A stretch of DNA of 64,000 bases, from assembly GCA_945892755.1 (NCBI GenBank), contig CAMDDO010000004.1, positions 3,099-67,098 of the forward strand, in the 5' to 3' direction. Numbering within the stretch: the stretch's first letter is position 1; each line of letters begins with the position of its first letter. Below, one piece after another: positions 5,191-14,278 of this stretch. The DNA is from Rhizobium sp. Q54. Its GTDB lineage: Bacteria; Pseudomonadota; Alphaproteobacteria; UBA828. The notes beneath the pieces were generated by a model. That model saw nothing but the letters and a program-made list of their open reading frames with translations, ran no database searches and was not told the DNA's origin. The position numbers were made by a program, and so were the translations under genes.

Positions 5191-5640
5191 CGCATCGAGC
5201 GCGCCTTGCAAAATGTAGACCGCCGCGAGCTTGTCGACCACTTCGGCGCGGCGCTTGCGCGATAAATCGGCCTCCAACATGGTGCGCGTCACCGCCATGG
5301 TCGAGAGCCGCTCGTCCCAAAAGACGATCGGCAGGTCGATCGCTTTGCCAAGGTCGGTCGCGAACTGACGCACCGATTGGCAGCGCGGCCCCTCGGAGCC
5401 GTCCATGTTGAGCGGCAGGCCGATCACGAGGCCGCCGACGCCATCATCGCTCACCAAGCGCGCCAGCGTGCCGAGGTCCTTTTTTAGCTTTGTCCGCGCG
5501 ATGGTCTGGCGCCCGCTCGCCACCACGCGCCGTTCGTCGGAAATCGCGATGCCGATGGTCTTGCTGCCGACATCGAGCCCAAGCAGACGGGCCTTTGGCC
5601 CGAGCGCGGCGGCGAAGTCCTGTATGTTGCGGAGCAGCAT
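5176..5640 (-). CDS. ruvX: Holliday-junction resolvase-like YqgF/RuvX
   Basis: [15 protein letters not shown] and [14 protein letters not shown] motifs. An internal Met at 5640 gives the typical ~154 aa length; the longest ORF extends to 5679. Confidence 0.8.
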
Positions 5641-5746
5641 GACGGGTGTTAGCTTCGCGTCCTTCGCGCCGGTCGGCAAGGCAATCCAACCATTTGGTCG
5701 TCATGCCCCGGCGAATCAGGCGGCTTCATCGGTTGGGAACGACAGC

Positions 5747-6034
5747 ATGGCGATCGATCGGGCGACGGTGCTCAAGATCGCGCGTTTGGCGCGCATCGAG
5801 GTCAGGCCCGAGGAGTGCGACCATTTGGCGAAGGAAATCTCCGGTATCCTCGCCTGGGTCGAGCAGCTTGGCGAGGTCGATACCCGCAACGTCGAGCCGA
5901 TGACCAGCGTGGTGGCGATGGAATTGCCGCGCCGCGCCGACGAGGTGACCGACGGCAATATCAGGGACGCGATCTTGGCCAATGCGCCCGAGGTTGAAGG
6001 CGGATTTTTCGTGGTGCCCAAGGTGGTCGAATAG
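5747..6034 (+). CDS. gatC: Asp/Glu-tRNA amidotransferase subunit C
   Basis: 95-aa protein with the ARLARI..EE..L..IL.WV..L motif, immediately upstream of gatA. Confidence 0.85.
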
Positions 6035-7518
6035 TGGCCAAGCTCACCGATCTGACATTGAAGGCCGCGCGCGAGGGGCTTGCCGCGCGGAACTTCTCCG
6101 CGCGCGAACTCGCGGAGGCGCACATCAAGGCGTGCGAGGCGGCGCGGCCCTTGAACGCCTATATGGCCGAGACCTTCGATCAAGCGCGCGCCATGGCCGA
6201 TGGCTCCGATCGGCGGCTCAAGGCGGGCGAGGGCGGGCTGCTCGAAGGCATTCCGCTCGCGATCAAGGATTTGTTCTGCACCAAGGGCGTGCTCTCGACC
6301 TCAAGCTCGAAAATCCTGAAAGGCTTCAAGCCGCCCTATGAATCGACGGTCACCGCGAAATTGTGGCAGGCCGGCGCGGTGATGGTCGGCAAGACCGGCA
6401 TGGATGAATTCGCCATGGGCTCGTCCAACATGACGAGCTGCTATGGCGCGGTGACCAATCCCTGGCGCCGCAAGGGCGATAACAAGCCCTTGGTGCCGGG
6501 CGGCTCGTCGGGCGGCTCGGCCGCCGCGGTCGCGGCGCGCACCTGCCTCGGCGCGACCGGCACCGATACCGGCGGCTCGATCCGCCAACCGGCGGCGTTT
6601 TGCGGTTTGGTTGGGTTGAAGCCGACCTATGGCCGCTGTTCGCGCTGGGGCATCATCGCCTTCGCCTCCTCGCTCGATCAGGCCGGGCCGCTCGCGCGCG
6701 ATGTCCACGATACCGCGCTCCTGATGCGCGCCATGGCGGGCTATGATCCGAAGGATTCAACCTCGGTCGATCGTCCCGTGCCCGATTACGCCGCGGCCCT
6801 GAACGGCAGGGTGAAGGGCTTGCGCATCGGCGTGCCCAAGGAATATCGCGTCGATGGCATGCCGGCTGAGATCGAGGCGCTCTGGCAAAAGGGCATTGAA
6901 TGGTTCAAGGCGGCGGGCGCCGAGATCGTCGACATTACCTTGCCGCACACCAAATACGCGCTGCCGACCTATTACGTCATCGCGCCGGCCGAATGTTCGT
7001 CGAACCTCGCGCGCTATGATGGCGTGCGCTACGGCCTGCGCGAGAAGGGCGCTGATTTGGCCGAGCTCTATAGCAAGACGCGCGCCGCCGGCTTCGGCCC
7101 CGAAGTGCGCCGGCGTATTCTGATCGGCACCTATGTGCTCTCGGCCGGCTATTACGACGCTTATTATCTGAAGGCCCAGCAGGTACGCACGCGCATCGCC
7201 GACGATTTTCGCACCGGCTTCGAGCGCGTCGATCTGGTCTTGACGCCGACCGCGCCGTCGCCGGCCTTCGGGATCGGCGAGATGATGGACGATCCGGTCG
7301 CGATGTATTTGAACGATGTCTTCACCGTGCCGGCCTCGCTCGCCGGTCTGCCCGCGATCTCGGTGCCGGCGGGCCTGAGCGCGGACGGTCTGCCGCTCGG
7401 TCTGCAATTGATCGGCCGGCCGTTCGACGAGGAAACCGTGCTGCGTGCCGCCGGCTTCATGGAAGAGGCCGCCGCGTTCAAAGCGGAGCCCGCCTGGCTC
7501 GGCGAGGGCCGCGCATGA
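6034..7518 (+). CDS. gatA: Asp/Glu-tRNA amidotransferase subunit A (amidase)
   Basis: Amidase signature [27 protein letters not shown] start overlaps the gatC stop. Confidence 0.95.
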
Positions 7519-8969
7519 GCGCGATCGTCGAAGGCCGCACCGGGCCGTTCGAAATGGTCATCGGGCTTGAGGTGCATGCCCAGGTGATCTCGAAGGCGAA
7601 GCTGTTCTCCGGCGCCTCGACCGCGTTCGGCGCGGAGCCCAACACGCAGGTCTCGTTCATCGATGCCGGCATGCCGGGCATGCTGCCGGTGATCAACGGC
7701 CTATGCGTCGAACAGGCGGTCAAGACGGGTCTGGCGCTCAACGCCCAAATCAATTTGGTCTCGGTCTTCGATCGCAAGAATTATTTTTATCCCGACCTGC
7801 CGCTCGGCTATCAGATCTCGCAATTCACCAAACCGATCGTGGGCAAGGGCATCGTCACCATCGACCTGCCCGATGGCTCGACCAAGGATATCGGCATCAC
7901 GCGGCTTCACCTCGAAATGGATGCCGGCAAGAGCATTCACGACATTCGCCCCGATGCCACGCACGTCGATCTCAATCGCGCGGGCGTCGCGCTGATGGAA
8001 ATCGTCTCCGAGCCCGATATCCGCACGCCCGAGGAAGCCGGCGCCTATGTGAAAAAACTGCGCTCGCTGCTCCGTTATATCGATACGTGCGACGGCAATA
8101 TGGACGAAGGCTCGATGCGCTGCGATGTCAACGTCTCGGTGCGCCGGCCGGGCGAGGGCTTCGGCACGCGCTGCGAGATCAAGAACGTCAATTCGGTGCG
8201 TTTCGTCATGCGCGCGATCGAATATGAGGCAGCGCGTCAGGTCGGCATCATCGAGGCGGGCGGCACGATCGATCAGGAAACCCGCCTGTTCGATTCGCAG
8301 AAGGGCGAGACGCGCCCCATGCGCTCAAAGGAAGAGGCGCACGACTATCGCTATTTCCCCGATCCCGATCTCTTGCCGCTGAGACTCGATCCCGCCTGGG
8401 TGGCGCGCATCAAGGCGGCGTTGCCTGAGCTCCCCGATGCGCGGAAAGAGCGCTTCGTGCGCGATTTCGGGCTCTCGCCCTATGACGCGAGCGTGCTCGT
8501 CGCCGAGAAGGAGAACGCCGCTTTTTTCGAAACCGTCGCCAAGGGCCGCGATGGCAAGATGGCGGCCAATTGGGTGATGACGGAATTGTTCGGCGCGCTC
8601 AACAAGAAGGGGCTCGATGTCACGCGCTCGCCGGTCAAGGCCGAGGCGCTTGGCGGCCTGATCGACCGCATCAAGGACAACACGATCTCGGGCCGCATCG
8701 CCAAGGAGGTTTTCGAGATCATGGTCGAGACCGGGCGAGATGCCGATGCAATCATCGAAGAGAAGGGCCTGCGCCAGGTGACGGACACCGGCGCGATCGA
8801 GGCCGAGGTGGACAAGGTGATCGCCGCCAACGCCGACAAGGTCGCGCAAATCCGCGCCGGCAAGGAGGCGCTCAAAGGCTGGTTCGTCGGCCAGGTGATG
8901 AAGGCGACCCAAGGCAAGGCCAACCCCGCCGCGGTCAATCAGATTCTCGATAAAAAGCTGAAGGGCTGA
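7515..8969 (+). CDS. gatB: Asp/Glu-tRNA amidotransferase subunit B
   Basis: [22 protein letters not shown] and C-terminal GatB/YqeY domain. ATGA overlap with gatA. Confidence 0.95.
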
Positions 8970-9001
8970 ACCGCGCCTCCCGAGCGAGCCGGGCCTTGCC
9001 A

Positions 9002-9018
9002 GCGCGCGGCCCGCGCGC
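9002..9018 (+). terminator. GC-rich hairpin after gatB (7-bp stem GCGCGCG / CGCGCGC, 3-nt loop), no U-tract
   Basis: Inverted repeat read directly in the gatB-GST intergenic region. Confidence 0.3.
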
Positions 9019-9047
9019 CATCCTGCCCGCCTCCTTAAGGGCAAGCC

Positions 9048-9740
9048 ATGATCGATCTCTATTATTGGCCGACGCCGAATGGCTGGAAGATCTCGATCGC
9101 GCTGGAGGAGCTCGGCCTCGCCTATGAAGTGAAGCCGATCAACATCGCGAAGGGCGAGCAATTCGCGCCCGATTTTCTGAAGATCGCGCCCAACAACCGC
9201 ATCCCCGCGATCGTCGACCATGACGGCCCGCGCGGCGCGCCTTTCGCGCTGTTCGAATCGGGCGCGGTCCTCCTCTATCTCGGCGAGAAGGTCGGAAAAC
9301 TCATCGGCACCACGCCGCGTGCGCGCTATGAGGTGCTGGTCTGGCTGATGTGGCAGATGGGCGGCGTCGGCCCGATGTTCGGCCAAGCCAATCATTTTTC
9401 GCGCTATGCGCCGCAAAAAGTGCCCTATGCGATCGAACGCTATGAGAACGAGGCGCGCCGTCTGACCGGCGTGCTCGATAAACGTCTCGCCGGGCGCGAT
9501 TTTGTCGCGGGCGATTATTCGGTGGCCGATATCGCGATCTTCGGCTGGATGCGGGATTATGCCAGCGGCCGTTCCTTGGCCGATTTCGCCAATGCGCGGC
9601 GCTGGTTCGATGCGCTTTCGGCGCGCCCGGCGGTGCAGCGCGGCGTGGCGCTTGGCGCCGAGCTCCGCGTCGCGCCCGCTCAACTCGATCAGGCGGCGCG
9701 CGACACGCTATTCGGCAAGCGTCAATTGGAACGTCGATAG
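9048..9740 (+). CDS. glutathione S-transferase (Nu-class, YfcG/YghU-like)
   Basis: N-terminal thioredoxin-like fold YxxPTPNGxKISI, NNRIPAI, ESGAILxYL motifs. Confidence 0.85.
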   Translation: MIDLYYWPTPNGWKISIALEELGLAYEVKPINIAKGEQFAPDFLKIAPNNRIPAIVDHDGPRGAPFALFESGAVLLYLGEKVGKLIGTTPRARYEVLVWLMWQMGGVGPMFGQANHFSRYAPQKVPYAIERYENEARRLTGVLDKRLAGRDFVAGDYSVADIAIFGWMRDYASGRSLADFANARRWFDALSARPAVQRGVALGAELRVAPAQLDQAARDTLFGKRQLERR

Positions 9741-9774
9741 AAATTTCGATCTCATAAACAAAGGGAGGTCTCTC

Positions 9775-10482
9775 ATGGCCAAGCAAGCGAAGAAGAGAAA
9801 CGTCGCCGCCAAATCGAAGACCAAGGCGAAGGCAAAAACCAAATCGAAGGCGCAAGCGAAGCAGCCGAAGGTTCACCTCTATGGCGTCTGGCTGTCGCAG
9901 CCGACCCAGCGCGTCGCGCTCATGCTCAATATGGCGAAGGTGCCGCACGCCTATCACCATGTCGATCTGTTCCAGGGCGAGCACAAGAAGCCTGACTATT
10001 TGAAGATCAACCGGTTCGGCCAGGTGCCGGCGCTGGTCTGCAAGGGCGAGGCGATGTGCCAATCGAACCGCATTCTGGAATTCCTCGCGGCGAGCACCGG
10101 CAAGTTCGACGGCGGTTCTCCCAAGGACAAGCGGGCGGTGCGCGAATGGTTGAATTGGTGCGACGATCGGCTGGTCAACGTCAATCGCGCACGGGCGCAA
10201 ATTCGTTTCCAGAAGGGTGGACCCGAAATCGTGGCGTTCTGCCAGGCCAATGCCAGGGCGGCGCTCGATGTGCTGGAGGCGCATATGAAGGGCCGCAAAT
10301 TCATCGTCGGCGCCAAGCCCACCATCGCCGATATCGCGGCCTATGCGCAGATCGCGCTGTTGGATGAGGCGCAGCTCGATATCAAGACCTGGCCGAGCAT
10401 CGCGGAATGGTGCGCGCGCGTGGCGAAACTGCCCGGCTCAAGCCATCCCTATGAGGCGCTGCCGAAGGAATCGCGCGCGTGA
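9775..10482 (+). CDS. glutathione S-transferase with 30-aa Lys/Ala-rich N-terminal tail
   Basis: MAKQAKKRNVAAKSKTKAKAKTKSKAQAKQPK tail, then a GST fold (VPALV, ES..IL.FL). AAAGGGAGG RBS precedes the ATG at 9775. Confidence 0.8.
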   Translation: MAKQAKKRNVAAKSKTKAKAKTKSKAQAKQPKVHLYGVWLSQPTQRVALMLNMAKVPHAYHHVDLFQGEHKKPDYLKINRFGQVPALVCKGEAMCQSNRILEFLAASTGKFDGGSPKDKRAVREWLNWCDDRLVNVNRARAQIRFQKGGPEIVAFCQANARAALDVLEAHMKGRKFIVGAKPTIADIAAYAQIALLDEAQLDIKTWPSIAEWCARVAKLPGSSHPYEALPKESRA

Positions 10483-11099
10483 TCGAGCTTTACACCTGGG
10501 GCACGCCGAATGGCCGCAAGGTCTCCATCATGTTGGAGGAGACCGGGCTGGAATATGGCGTGCACAGCGTGAATATCGGAACCGGCGAGCAGCACAGGCC
10601 TGATTTTCTGGCGCTCAGCCCGAACAATCGTATCCCCGCGATCGTCGATCCCGAAGGGCCGGATGGCGCGCCGATCAGTCTCTTTGAATCGGGCGCCATC
10701 CTGGTCTATCTCGCCAACAAGACCGGCAAGTTCTTGCCCGGCGATCCAGTGCGCCATTATGACGTCATGCAATGGCTGATGTTCCAGATGGGCAATGTCG
10801 GGCCGATGTTCGGCCAGCTCCATCATTTCAAGCGCAACGCGCCCGAGCCTTTGCCCTATCCGCTTGAGCGCTATACGCGCGAGGCGAAGCGGCTCTATGG
10901 CGTGATGAACCAGCGTCTGTCCGAGAGCGCCTATCTTGCTGGCGCTGATTACAGCATCGCCGATATCGCGACCTACCCCTGGGTCGCGCGTCATGATTGG
11001 CAGGAGATCGAGCTCAAGGACTATCCGGCCGTCAAGCGCTGGTACGATGAGATCGGCGCGCGACCCGCAGTGCAGCGGGGCTACAAGGTGCCGGCCTAA
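10479..11099 (+). CDS. glutathione S-transferase (Nu-class), paralog of 9048..9740
   Basis: Near-colinear with the first GST (TPNGRKVSI, NNRIPAIVD, ESGAILVYL, MFGQ). GTG start overlaps the upstream stop. Confidence 0.85.
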   Translation: MIELYTWGTPNGRKVSIMLEETGLEYGVHSVNIGTGEQHRPDFLALSPNNRIPAIVDPEGPDGAPISLFESGAILVYLANKTGKFLPGDPVRHYDVMQWLMFQMGNVGPMFGQLHHFKRNAPEPLPYPLERYTREAKRLYGVMNQRLSESAYLAGADYSIADIATYPWVARHDWQEIELKDYPAVKRWYDEIGARPAVQRGYKVPA

Positions 11100-11112
11100 C
11101 GCGAGGAGGACC

Positions 11113-11604
11113 GTGTCGGCGCTCGACAATCCTTCGGTCCAACGAGTCCAGGCGGCGCTTGAAGCCGCCGGCTCCGCCGCCCGCGTGATCGCCCTGGTCG
11201 ATATTGCGCGCAGCGCCGAAGACGCCGCACGCGCGATCGGCACTGCGCTCGGCAGCATCGTCAAATCGCTTGTGTTCATGGTCGATGGGCAGGCGGTGAT
11301 GGCGCTGATCGCGGGTGACCGGCGTTGCGATATCGCGGCCTTGCCGGCCGCGCTTGGCCTTACGGGCAAGGCCAAACGCGCGGATGCCGAGATCGTGCGC
11401 GCCGCGACCGGTTTTGCCATCGGGGGTGTCGCGCCGGTTGGCCACGTGAACCAGCTGCCCATCGCGATCGATTCCAGCCTCCGGCGTTTTGATGCGATCT
11501 ATGCCGCGGCCGGTCATCCGCATTGCGTGTTTCCGACCAGTGTTGATGAATTGAGACGCCTGACCGGCGGGCGCGAGGTCGTGGGCATTGGCGTCGAGGC
11601 CTGA
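11113..11604 (+). CDS. YbaK/ProX-type aminoacyl-tRNA deacylase domain protein
   Basis: KSLVF...GxxxxAxxxGxRRxD and GGVAPxGH motifs typical of YbaK/EbsC. GAGGAGGA RBS precedes the GTG at 11113. Confidence 0.65.
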   Translation: MSALDNPSVQRVQAALEAAGSAARVIALVDIARSAEDAARAIGTALGSIVKSLVFMVDGQAVMALIAGDRRCDIAALPAALGLTGKAKRADAEIVRAATGFAIGGVAPVGHVNQLPIAIDSSLRRFDAIYAAAGHPHCVFPTSVDELRRLTGGREVVGIGVEA

Positions 11605-11804
11605 GTGGCGACTTGGTCGCGTGCGCCTTCGCGGCGACCGGGTCTTCACGCGGCGTTTAGGCTCTTGGCCTAGAATCCATGGGGTCCGCGCCATTCGCCG
11701 GTCGCGATTGACAGGGCTGGCGGCGGCGGATAGGAAGGCCGGCGCAGGCCGCTAGCGGCCGAAAGGAAGCGTTCCACGCCAGCGACGTGGGCCGAGGCGA
11801 GCAT

Positions 11805-11898
11805 GGACGGGTGGCCGAGCGGCTGAAGGCGGCGGTTTGCTAAACCGTTATACGGGCCTAAACCTGTATCGAGGGTTCGAATCCCTCCCCGTCCGCCA
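11805..11898 (+). tRNA. tRNA-Ser(GCU): tRNA-Ser (anticodon GCU), class II with long variable arm
   Basis: Acceptor GGACGGG/CCCGTCC, D-arm GCCGAGCGGCTGAAGGC, anticodon stem-loop GCGGT-TTGCTAA-ACCGT (anticodon GCT), long variable arm, T-arm GAGGG-TTCGAAT-CCCTC, discriminator G plus encoded CCA. Confidence 0.85.
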
Positions 11899-11964
11899 TC
11901 TCGGGTCTGTCCGGCCCGGAGACATAGGGAACGGAACGTACCCAAGACATGGGCGACAACCCGA

Positions 11965-12574
11965 CTATCCGGTCGCGCTTCGGCGCGCGGCCGCGTGGTA
12001 ATCACGATGACTTGGCGGTCGCGCGCGGCCGTCGACCCAATCCCAGAACTGCGAAGCGTCGCGGGCGAACGGCAACAAGGGCTGAAGCACCTTGCGGGCG
12101 TTCGGCAGTGCTATGGCTGTGCGTCGGTCAAGGTCGGGCCATAATGTCAGAACATCGCCGGACGCGACCAGGCCGCGGCACCTTGGGGCGCCGCATCGGC
12201 ACGCCATCGGCTCGATCAAATTGAGGTGGCCGTACTCGCAGGTGACCTGCTCGTCGGCCGCGATGTCGCGCACGGCGATCTCGAAGTCGCCGCCGACAGC
12301 AAGCATCGCCGGCTCACAGCTGTGATTGACGTAACGGCCATGGTCCCAGCACAAGATCACGCGACCTTCCGCGTCGATGTATGAATACTGCTCGAGGACC
12401 GGCTGATAGGGTGGCGGGAACGCCGCCACTTCCTTGGGCGTAAAAATCATGTCGAGGCGGCACAGCACCCAGAGGATCGTGCCGCGTGGGATCGGCTCGC
12501 GGGCAAAAACACCGTAGCCGATCTCTTCGCTGATGAAGCGCAATTCGGTGGCTGGATGGATCATCGCTCGCTCA
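11965..12574 (-). CDS. SET-domain protein lysine methyltransferase (bacterial)
   Basis: GYGVFA (GxG), RYVNHSCEPA (NHSC), EQVTCEYG (ELxxxY), and a Cys-rich post-SET CRCGAPRCRG. Convergent with the tRNA, 67 bp away. Confidence 0.75.
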
Positions 12575-12817
12575 TATGGTTCCCAGGGTGACAAGGTGGT
12601 CCCGATGCACCGCCTCCATGCGGGCGCGCGGCTCCGGCGCGTGCCGCAACAACAACTCGAACTGACGCCGTTGCAGCGATAGAAGCGTACACGGCATGAG
12701 GGTGCGCACGCTGGTCGTGCGTCGCACGGCGCGCAAAAGCGTGATCTCGCCAAAATGATCGCCCGCCTCAAGAACCGCGACTCGACGGCGGATGCCTTCC
12801 GCCTCGTCCCCCAACAC
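12572..12817 (-). pseudogene. C-terminal half of a cyclic-nucleotide-binding (CAP/Crp-type) domain, likely a remnant
   Basis: GDHFGEITLL..RTTSVRTL...LLSL.RRQFELLL matches the second half of a cNMP-binding domain. The N-terminal beta-strands are absent. It is in frame with the ALDH TGA stop (12854-12856), 36 nt upstream. Confidence 0.45.
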
Positions 12818-12853
12818 CTCGACCGCGCCGCCGACCCGCGGAGGGCAGTGCCC

Positions 12854-14278
12854 TCAGTGCTTGACCATGACGTGGCGGACGACGGTGTAGTCCTCGAGCG
12901 CGTACATCGAGAGGTCCTTGCCATAGCCCGAGTTCTTGATCCCGCCATGCGGCATCTCGTTGATCAGCATGAAGTGGCAATTGACCCAGGTGCAGCCATA
13001 TTGAAGCCGGGCCGCGGTCTGCATCGCCTTGCCGACATCCTTGGTCCAAACCGACGAGGCGAGGCCGTAATCCGAATCATTAGCCCAGCCGATGACCTCC
13101 TCGACGTCCTTGAAGCGCGTGACCGACACGACCGGACCGAACACCTCGCGACGAACGATCTCGTCCTCCTGGCGGGCGCCGGCGATCACGGTCGGCTCAT
13201 AAAAGAAGCCCTTGCCCGAGCTCGGGTGGCCGCCGGCCACGACGCTCATGTGCTTCTGCCCGGCGGCGCGCTCGACGAAGCTCGCGACGCGACTGCGCTG
13301 GCGCGCGCTGATCAAGGAGCCGATCTCGTTCTCGGCGTCCTCCGCCTTGTCGTAGCGGATGGTCTTTACGGCGCTCGCGAGGTCGGCGACGAAATTGTCG
13401 TGGATCTTGTTCGCGACATAGACCCGGCAGGCCGCCGTGCAGTCCTGCCCGGCATTGTAATAGCCAAAGGTCCGGATGCCCTCGACCACGGATTCGAGGT
13501 CGACATCGTCGAACACGATGACCGGCGCCTTGCCGCCGAGCTCGAGATGCGTGCGTTTCAAATTGCGCGAGGCGGCGGCCAGCACCTTCTGCCCGGTCGA
13601 GACATCGCCGGTGAGCGAGACCATGCGCACGCGCGGGTGGCCAACCAGCGCCGCGCCGACCGAGTCGCCACGCCCGACCACCACATTGAGCACGCCTTCG
13701 GGCAGAATGCCGGCCGCGAGCGCGGCGAATTTCAGCGTGGTCAGCGGCGTCTGCTCGGATGGCTTGAGCACCACCGTATTACCAGCGGCAAGCGCCGGCG
13801 CGAGCTTCCACGCAGCCATCATGAGCGGATAATTCCACGGCGCGATCGAACCCACGACGCCGACCGGATCGCGCCTAATCATCGAGGTGTGTCCGGCGAG
13901 ATACTCGCCCGCCGCGCTGCCCGATTGAACGCGCGCCGCGCCAGCGAAGAAGCGATAGCAATCGACCACCGCCGGAATCTCGTCGGCCAAGACCTTGTGA
14001 TAGGGCTTGCCGCAATTTTGCGCCTCGAGCCGGGCGAAGGCCTCGGCATCGGCTTCGATCGCAGCGGCGATTTGGAAGAGCTTTGATGAGCGCTCGGCTG
14101 GCGTGGTGCGCGACCAGCGCGCGAAGGCGTGTTCGGCGGCCGCGACCGCTTCGTCGACCTGCTCGGGGCTCGCCTCCGGCAGCTTGACAATGGTCTGGCC
14201 GGTCGCCGGGTTGAGGATGATCTCTTCGCCCTCGGTTCCGGCGACGAATTTGCCGCCGATCAACATGGCATTTTGCAT
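12854..14278 (-). CDS. NAD(P)-dependent aldehyde dehydrogenase
   Basis: ALDH catalytic motifs ELGGKAP and the GQDCTA Cys site. Start [11 protein letters not shown] is preceded by an AAGGGAGA RBS. Confidence 0.9.

Follow-up and report, generated by a model that had tools for sequence, protein, structure and literature searches.

A lysine-rich N-terminal tail on a Ser-type glutathione S-transferase from a gene cluster of Rhizobium sp. Q54

Background

Lysine-rich low-complexity regions mark DNA-binding proteins, and metabolic enzymes are generally depleted of low-complexity regions. In Pseudomonas, the tail of AlgP binds DNA and localises to polyphosphate (polyP) granules. PhaF combines a phasin domain, which binds polyhydroxyalkanoate (PHA), with a KPAA tail that binds nucleic acid, both DNA and RNA, the RNA being bound through the lysines. 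The lysine-repeat tails of several actinobacterial proteins confer or modulate non-specific DNA binding. Here we describe a polycationic tail on a glutathione S-transferase (GST), encoded at 9775..10482 (+) in a 64,000-nt stretch of DNA from the alphaproteobacterium Rhizobium sp. Q54 (contig CAMDDO010000004.1, positions 3,099 to 67,098 of the forward strand). This whole stretch is called the window in the following.

GSTs are known as classical soluble enzymes for the detoxification of small molecules. Basic appendages on GSTs have been described in plants. Arabidopsis GSTT3L and GSTU12 are nuclear by means of appended DNA-binding or basic extensions, and the reduction of nucleic-acid hydroperoxides has been proposed as their role. 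Plant theta GSTs are peroxidases, and nucleic acid co-purifies with their basic members GSTT1 and GSTT2. GSTs and histone H1-like Lys-rich tails are both known, and their combination in bacteria is apparently undescribed: no bacterial GST with a Lys-rich tail was found described in the open-access full-text literature, which is no proof of absence.

Results and discussion

Composition of the tail

The open reading frame (ORF) at 9775..10482 codes for a protein of 235 aa. Its 5' part (9775..9870, +) encodes the polycationic N-terminal tail, aa 1–32, with the sequence MAKQAKKRNVAAKSKTKAKAKTKSKAQAKQPK. This segment contains 12 Lys, 1 Arg and 8 Ala (37.5% Lys, 25% Ala), a single Pro and neither Asp nor Glu, which gives a charge of +13. 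After Met1 there is no large hydrophobic residue (no Leu, Ile, Phe, Trp or Tyr), and an amphipathic pattern is absent. One would expect 12 or more Lys in 32 residues with a probability of only ~1.6e-10, given the Lys background of 3.2% (Arg 8.2%) in 15 long ORFs of the window that were taken as genes. In a six-frame translation of the whole 64 kb, the GST tail is the sole stretch of such Lys density. That such tails are a habit of the entire genome was not seen: only GST tails were found as gene-level hits in the 64-kb window and in ~147 kb of related loci, a small sample. The DNA of the tail has 54% GC and 42% A, compared with 64% GC and 17% A for the window.

The lysines follow a loose K-x alternation (KSKTKAKAKTKSK). 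A first-pass annotation of the window had described a 30-aa AKxK-repeat tail on a canonical GST. Tail and GST are both borne out, the length being 32 instead of 30 aa, and Lys does alternate with another residue; however, no DNA tandem repeat was found by TRF between positions 9740 and 9900. A KPAA unit does not occur in the window tail either. Residues 1–31 match no Pfam family, and no family for the tail was found in Pfam or NCBIfam.

Translation of the tail

A Shine-Dalgarno (SD) sequence, GGGAGG, was read directly at 9763..9768 (+), 6 nt 5' of the tail ATG. Between codon 1 and the first strand of the GST fold (beta1, aa 33–37) there is no in-frame ATG, GTG or TTG. Because of this SD 6 nt upstream and the lack of an alternative start before beta1 and the predicted catalytic Ser41, the tail is translated, as far as a sequence can show. 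The related loci (numbered L, with their proteins numbered P) agree with this. A GGAG(G)-type SD is found at the matching position before the tail ATG in every tailed locus checked, L002 and L007 have an in-frame stop 3 nt 5' of this ATG, and the indels among six aligned loci are all multiples of 3.

The Lys-rich region could alternatively be an untranslated leader or the result of a mis-called start, with the real protein beginning downstream. The in-frame Met50 and Met53 (MLNMAK), which the first-pass annotation had named as the possible true start, do exist, and nothing further speaks for them. A start there would delete strand beta1, half of helix alpha1 and Ser41, which is invariant among the aligned homologues. 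No start codon is located before beta1, the tail ATG has a strong SD in front of it at all loci, the frame is preserved across every indel, and the Lys codon use within the tail (AAG 9 : AAA 3) also stands against a downstream start. The probability of this explanation is practically negligible.

The GST core

Directly after the tail follows the GST core (9871..10482, +; aa 33–235 plus stop), which begins with VHLYGVWLSQPT and consists of a thioredoxin-like N-domain and a helical C-domain. Pfam GST_N is matched by aa 32–105 with 46.7 bits (cut-off 20.9) and GST_N_2 with 53 bits. GST_C (38.1 bits, aa 159–220) and GST_C_2 (41.9 bits) cover aa 152–220, both above cut-off. An AlphaFold2 model was made with a 31-sequence alignment (A1) and reached a pTM of 0.83 and, for core residues 33–230, a pLDDT >93. 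The N-domain in this model has strands at 33–37, 58–62, 86–89 and 92–94 and helices at 42–53, 73–78 and 97–108, and the helices of the C-domain span 116–217. For the tail, aa 1–32, the pLDDT is ~48–55 without any secondary structure, and the tail is predicted to be intrinsically disordered.

Foldseek returned 946 PDB matches at E <= 0.001, and 50 out of 50 listed are GST-fold proteins. The top matches are 3M8N, 4HZ2 and 3M3M, followed by insect delta GSTs, all with <=30% identity. A phmmer search likewise matched GST structures. The nearest solved folds, 3M8N from Rhodopseudomonas palustris and 4HZ2 from Xanthobacter autotrophicus (Xaut_3756), share ~29% identity and the same Ser-type architecture, with TM-scores of 0.74–0.77 normalised to the 235-aa query and 0.80–0.90 normalised to the target. 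Neither has an assigned function and neither has an N-terminal tail, the alignment beginning at residue 6 of 3M8N.

Ser41 (codon TCG, 9895..9897, +), located in the motif W-L-S-Q-P-T, is the predicted catalytic residue. It is invariant in A1, as are P85, the predicted cis-Pro of a Q-V-P motif, and S97; Q96 and Q83 are nearly so. N-domain, C-domain and the catalytic and glutathione (GSH)-binding residues were all found, which, judged from sequence and model, would place the protein in the cytosolic GST superfamily. It is predicted to be a catalytically competent Ser-type cytosolic GST, since the invariant S41, P85 and S97 point to an active enzyme rather than to a scaffold.

Concerning the class, GSTs within one class conventionally share more than about 40% identity. 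The motif W-L-S-Q-P-T/C resembles the 'LSQPCR'-type Ser motif of theta GSTs. Membership in the theta class was rejected, as the human theta structures 1LJR and 4MPF were found only at E ~1e-9 and uncharacterised bacterial and insect delta GSTs score better. With the YfcG and YghU profiles of NCBIfam the tailed GST reaches only 44.9 bits and it does not belong to the Nu class. Its class can be given only as a Ser-type GST of an unclassified subfamily.

Conservation of charge among orthologues

The first-pass annotation had left open whether the tail is conserved or variable in repeat number: it is conserved, and variable in length. In 16 out of 16 full-length orthologues (P0001–P0015 and P0017; 54–91% identity) a cationic tail of 22–31 aa is retained, with a net charge of +8 to +13 and almost no Asp or Glu. 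These tails usually start with MATKxKK, and their sequence and length drift through in-frame indels; the window tail is 4 residues longer than those of its closest relatives. In P0017 most Lys are swapped for Arg (MASRARTSNAAKQRAKTSAAARARGRS) at a GC3 of 0.86, and other tails are encoded by DNA of 63–71% GC. From the R-rich tails in GC-rich DNA it follows that the charge is conserved, not an A-rich mRNA or DNA. An A-rich 5' coding 'ramp' was rejected on the same grounds, because the Arg-rich tails encoded by GC-rich DNA keep the charge. Thus, charge and composition are kept by selection, rather than the sequence of the tail.

Even close relatives differ in tail length. Within 90%-identity clusters, a clean duplication of 24 aa (GSAPAKTKAAAKTAVAKPAGKAAA) separates P0050 and P0192 from P0193, the P0053 cluster (90% identity) spans 248–276 aa, and P0327 and P0345 are distinguished by a single 'KS' indel in the tail. 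Such length polymorphism within clusters of 90% identity indicates expansion and contraction of repeats.

The poor conservation of the tail sequence and its variable length within 90%-identity clusters are also what one would expect from a tail without any partner, which might serve solubility as an 'entropic bristle', act as an expression-enhancing 5' coding leader or simply represent a near-neutral low-complexity expansion. Disordered fusions can indeed raise solubility. However, the orthologues, at 54–91% identity, keep a net positive charge and have hardly any acidic residues, and the same is true of six or more further branches and of GSTs of a second class, as described below. The occurrence of Lys-based tails in A-rich DNA and Arg-based tails in GC-rich DNA argues against both an effect on mRNA and neutral drift. 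Furthermore, leaving the GST tails themselves aside, the tail is the sole segment of this type in the ~147 kb of scanned loci. We consider a tail without partner distinctly unlikely.

Recurrence in the Ser-type subfamily

The GST core alone was used in an exhaustive phmmer search against 1.84 billion cluster representatives, with the nearest clusters taken at 50% identity. Among these, tails were found in several branches of the subfamily, rich in K, A, P and R and 45–69 aa long: P0047 (63 aa, net charge +23), P0048 (60 aa, +19), P0050 (69 aa, +16), P0051 (52 aa, +13), P0053 (50 aa, +12) and P0019 (45 aa, +15). The fragments P0115, P0137 and P0158 are tailed, too. The tails of P0019, P0047 and P0050 contain more Pro and are nearer to AAKP/KPAA than the window tail. 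In a neighbour-joining (NJ) tree without support values the tailed proteins fall into at least six branches, interleaved with tail-less ones. Many of the related tailed GSTs come from uncultured alphaproteobacteria of soil and water, and one tailed cluster includes a metagenome-assembled genome (MAG) of Aestuariivirga sp. In more distant GST subfamilies no polycationic tail was found among the phmmer matches, and other long extensions among the matches listed resemble spurious GC-rich upstream read-through. All members are named generically in the databases, as 'glutathione S-transferase family protein' or 'GST-like protein', so that the tail is hidden by the present annotation.

Tails on the neighbouring Nu-class GST

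The tail is not restricted to the Ser-type enzyme. At locus L011 the Ser-type GST (P0029) is tail-less, and the adjacent Nu/YfcG-like GST (L011:6816-7601) starts with MARARAKRAKKAKPRRAVKGVKPKGASTQTKP. Further tailed Nu/YfcG-like GSTs are located, as this one is, downstream of gatB, at L018:7001-7774, L019:7001-7837 and L020:7001-7846. The Nu-class tails are rich in K, R, S, A and T, 24–79 aa long and almost free of acidic residues; they are preceded by GGAG sites and encoded by DNA of 63–71% GC. The versions of this Nu-class GST in cultured Ancylobacter, Xanthobacter, Starkeya and Chelatococcus (236–237 aa) are tail-less. The first-pass annotation had regarded the tail as not being a normal GST feature. 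This is true of characterised GSTs, and the solved GSTs examined lack a tail, the uncharacterised 3M8N and 4HZ2 aligning from their own N-termini, but within the subfamily and on its Nu-class neighbour the tail is recurrent.

Over the loci examined, either one class or neither is tailed. The Ser-type GST is tailed in the window and in L001, L002, L006, L007-9, L013-15 and L016, the Nu-type GST in L011, L018, L019 and L020, and neither of them in L010. No locus was found at which the GSTs of both types are tailed, in what is a small sample of related lineages. We regard this either/or pattern as a lead, not as a result.

A possible electrostatic tether

For the function of the tail we favour, at somewhat less than an even chance, that it ties the enzyme electrostatically and non-specifically to nucleic acid, be it the DNA of the nucleoid or RNA and ribosomes. 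This reading is made by analogy: binding of polyanions is proposed because it is the sole well-documented role of polycationic segments in bacteria. The GST dimer would display two flexible Lys-rich arms, which together with an unusually basic core would bring the charge of each dimer to about +42. By electrostatic attraction the arms would bind, without specificity, to a polyanion of the cell, nucleic acid being the likeliest partner, and the tether would thereby concentrate a GSH-dependent detoxifying, conjugation or peroxidase activity beside the polymer that is protected. The cores of tailed Ser-type GSTs are more basic than those of tail-less ones (pI ~8.3–9.9; mean net charge +6.8 compared with +1.6, a raw comparison that ignores kinship), which suggests an adaptation of the entire protein to a polyanionic partner.

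Several points weigh against this reading. The tail is short next to those of AlgP and PhaF and lacks their KPAA repeats, and its composition alone would fit DNA, RNA, polyP and acidic phospholipid alike. In the six independent lineages with a tail that lie beyond the clade of the window, the core charge is only +1 to +6. Repeated gain of the tail and an ancestral tail with repeated loss are not separable on the NJ tree, and all sequences of the family come from MAGs or metagenomes. Among 120 close homologues listed for the Nu-class GST of L011, the N-terminal motif could be placed in 115 and 71 out of these 115 are tailed, a count that is inflated because a tailed query biases the ranking upward.

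The main alternative partner is polyP. Here the tail would mediate localisation to granules, or it would subject the enzyme to polyP-dependent regulation or to Lon-mediated turnover in starvation; polyP-Lon degrades Lys-rich ribosomal proteins. The Lys-rich, H1-like tail of AlgP not only localises to polyP granules but organises them, and a purely cationic tail without hydrophobic residues would suit this partner. However, no ppk, ppx or CHAD gene is located near the cluster in any locus examined, and since AlgP also binds DNA, this precedent does not split the partners. Altogether, polyP appears rather unlikely.

Polycationic segments can also bind anionic lipid headgroups, and related GST classes such as the plant theta GSTs reduce organic and lipid hydroperoxides. 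On this basis the tail might anchor the enzyme through acidic phospholipids to the cytoplasmic face of the inner membrane, for instance for the reduction of lipid hydroperoxides. Known peripheral anchors usually mix basic and hydrophobic residues. In the window tail Leu, Ile, Phe, Trp and Tyr are all missing, there is no amphipathic pattern and a coil conformation is predicted, and the complete lack of hydrophobic residues argues against binding to a membrane as well as to a PHA surface. We judge the membrane as a very unlikely site. Binding of the Lys-rich segment to PHA granules was rejected also for another reason, as the precedent of PhaF assigns PHA binding to the phasin domain.

Returning to the tether to nucleic acid, a more general proposal can be made, which is more doubtful. 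Uncultured alphaproteobacteria of the Hyphomicrobiales type might possess a widespread and so far undescribed set of glutathione enzymes that are 'chromatin-tethered'. They would be encoded at a conserved GST locus, which mostly follows gatB, with one GST bearing an H1-like, polycationic and disordered tail. Either the Ser-type or the Nu-class, disulfide-reductase-like enzyme, with its GSH-dependent peroxidase, conjugation or disulfide-reductase activity, would be fixed on the nucleoid, on RNA or on polyP, and the length of the tail would be tuned by expansion and contraction of repeats. If this is true, the either/or pattern would imply that both GST classes act together at the site of the tether.

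Genomic context and translation-related neighbours

In the window, the genes are arranged in the order gatC-gatA-gatB, a 78-nt gap, a Nu-class GST, a 34-nt gap, the tailed GST, a 4-nt overlap, a second Nu-class GST, a 13-nt gap, a tRNA_edit gene and finally tRNA-Ser(GCU). The upstream neighbour (9048..9740, +) is a tail-less Nu/YfcG-like GST of 230 aa, with Pfam GST_N and GST_C domains and 211.6 bits to PRK13972. Its downstream counterpart (10479..11099, +), also tail-less and Nu/YfcG-like, has 206 aa, and its GTG start overlaps the stop of the tailed GST by 4 nt; the same overlap exists in L007, L013 and L015. With YfcG (PRK13972) and YghU (PRK11752) the flanking GSTs score 211.6 and 234.7 bits. 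This is below the equivalog cut-off of 332, and YfcG/YghU is their closest family. The GST triplet of the first-pass annotation is therefore confirmed, both flanking genes being YfcG/Nu-like GSTs by Pfam and NCBIfam. In sister lineages the order is Anthrone_oxy-rhomboid-GST-GST-tailedGST-GST-tRNA_edit.

The gene at 11113..11604 (+), 13 nt past the third GST and with an AGGAGG SD, encodes a YbaK/ProX-like aminoacyl-tRNA editing domain (Pfam tRNA_edit, NCBIfam). A tRNA_edit gene follows the GSTs also in L007-L009 and L015, and in the window it is probably part of the GST transcription unit. The operon structure is deduced solely from the spacing of the genes, with gaps of 34 and 13 nt and an overlap of 4 nt. 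No sigma70-like promoter was found in 8800-12000, and no EcfG-type GGAAC-N16/17-CGTT element near the GST cluster. Three candidate terminator sites were found, no more than in shuffled sequence, and none of them is located in the gaps from gatB to tRNA_edit.

Another conserved feature is the association with gatB (7515..8969, +, named GatB by cluster look-up), which ends 78 nt upstream of the GST cluster. A gatB gene is found upstream of the GSTs also in L006, L010, L011, L018, L019 and L020, and L001 has a 484-aa ORF of gatB length in the matching position. This linkage includes tail-less lineages, namely L010 (Phreatobacter aquaticus) and the Ser-type GST of L011, as well as L018-L020 with their tailed Nu-class GST. 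Since the synteny is present in tail-less members, it must predate the tail. Because of its frequent interruption, the linkage is taken as inherited gene order, not as evidence of a functional link.

With this neighbourhood one may ask whether the tailed GST is a tRNA or translation cofactor, similar to Arc1p or to the GST-like domains appended to eukaryotic synthetases, which would work together with GatCAB, with the YbaK-like editing protein or with both. The position of the GST locus downstream of gatB in the window and the loci named above, the tRNA_edit gene behind the GSTs in the clade of the window and the tRNA-Ser(GCU) gene (11805-11898), 200 nt further on, are consistent with such a role. 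Furthermore, human LysRS binds tRNA by means of an N-terminal domain that is disordered and Lys-rich. However, the linkage to gatB predates the tail and is often broken by unrelated genes or genes on the opposite strand, and the tailed GSTs P0017 and P0050 stand alone, without translation-related neighbours. The Arc1p_N_like profile reaches 17.9 bits, below its cut-off of 27, and just overlaps GST_C; a non-catalytic cofactor of the Arc1p type was rejected, as the catalytic Ser is still present together with the residues for GSH binding, which points to an enzyme, not to a scaffold. Thus, a cofactor function appears highly unlikely.

Some further observations concern the genes around the cluster. 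In the listed 209-aa ORF at 5405-6034 (+), a GatC domain is confined to residues 135-204, so that gatC proper, of about 95 aa, probably has its start a long way 3' of the ATG listed first. Just past tRNA-Ser(GCU), a bacterial SET domain, resembling lysine methyltransferases, is encoded by an ORF at 11965-12948 (-), whose 5' end is probably over-extended. A small Sel1-repeat gene often follows the Nu-class GST (L006, L019, L020). In L006 an Exo_endo_phos (endonuclease/exonuclease/phosphatase) gene of 338 aa (L006:6780-7796), with weak generic NCBIfam matches, is inserted between the tailed Ser-type GST P0019 and the Nu-class GST.

Comparison with known systems

The phenomenon is broader and better supported than it was at first sight, but its proposed function rests on analogy. 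A tail that was long kept on one GST clade, and which recurs in further branches and in a second class, argues for selection on where in the bacterial cell glutathione chemistry takes place. Should the tail indeed link the enzyme to DNA or RNA, enzymes would join the short list of bacterial proteins with H1-like tails, and the tail would serve as a simple and portable tag by which enzymes could be directed to the nucleoid.

Polyanion-binding tails had been attributed in the first-pass annotation to alphaproteobacterial proteins, with nucleic acid, PHA granules and polyP as partners. The documented precedents come from elsewhere, from AlgP and PhaF of Pseudomonas, from actinobacterial Ku, TopA and HupS and from Hc2 of Chlamydia; DNA, RNA and polyP stand as partners, whereas the PHA granule does not. 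With the tails of AlgP and PhaF, which are polyanion-binding modules, the window tail shares abundant Lys and Ala, predicted disorder, variable length and the attachment to a folded domain, and it would bind polyanions as they do. Those tails, however, are C-terminal, 100-195 aa long and contain 9 to >25 exact KPAA repeats, and the domains that bear them are non-enzymatic, either helical or of the phasin type. In the window, an enzyme bears the tail at its N-terminus, and this tail has 32 aa with one Pro and no exact repeat.

Ku with its PAKKA repeats, TopA, HupS and some CarD proteins with H1-like domains resemble the tailed GST in that a Lys/Ala/Pro low-complexity tail is joined to a folded domain. 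These hosts belong to another phylum and already act on DNA, whereas the host in the window is an enzyme of small-molecule redox chemistry or detoxification. Yeast Arc1p and the GST-like domains appended to eukaryotic synthetases combine the GST fold with a Lys-rich nucleic-acid-binding segment, and the window gene has translation-related neighbours. In contrast to the intact catalytic residues of the window GST, those domains are non-catalytic interaction modules.

Among GSTs, parallels are the Arabidopsis proteins GSTT3L, a theta GST-Myb fusion, and GSTU12, with a 25-aa N-terminal extension containing KKRKK. In both, a Ser-type GST is relocated by a basic or DNA-binding appendage. They differ in being eukaryotic and in using import signals or a folded Myb domain, not a low-complexity polycation, and their homology to the window protein is that of the GST fold only. 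Dps protects against stress and is bound to DNA through a flexible N-terminus, which contains lysines. It differs in its ferritin fold, its dodecameric assembly and its few lysines. Provided that the tail does tether the enzyme to DNA or RNA, the tailed GSTs would be a bacterial parallel to those GSTs that plants and animals direct to the nucleus, as well as to Dps with its DNA-binding N-terminus.

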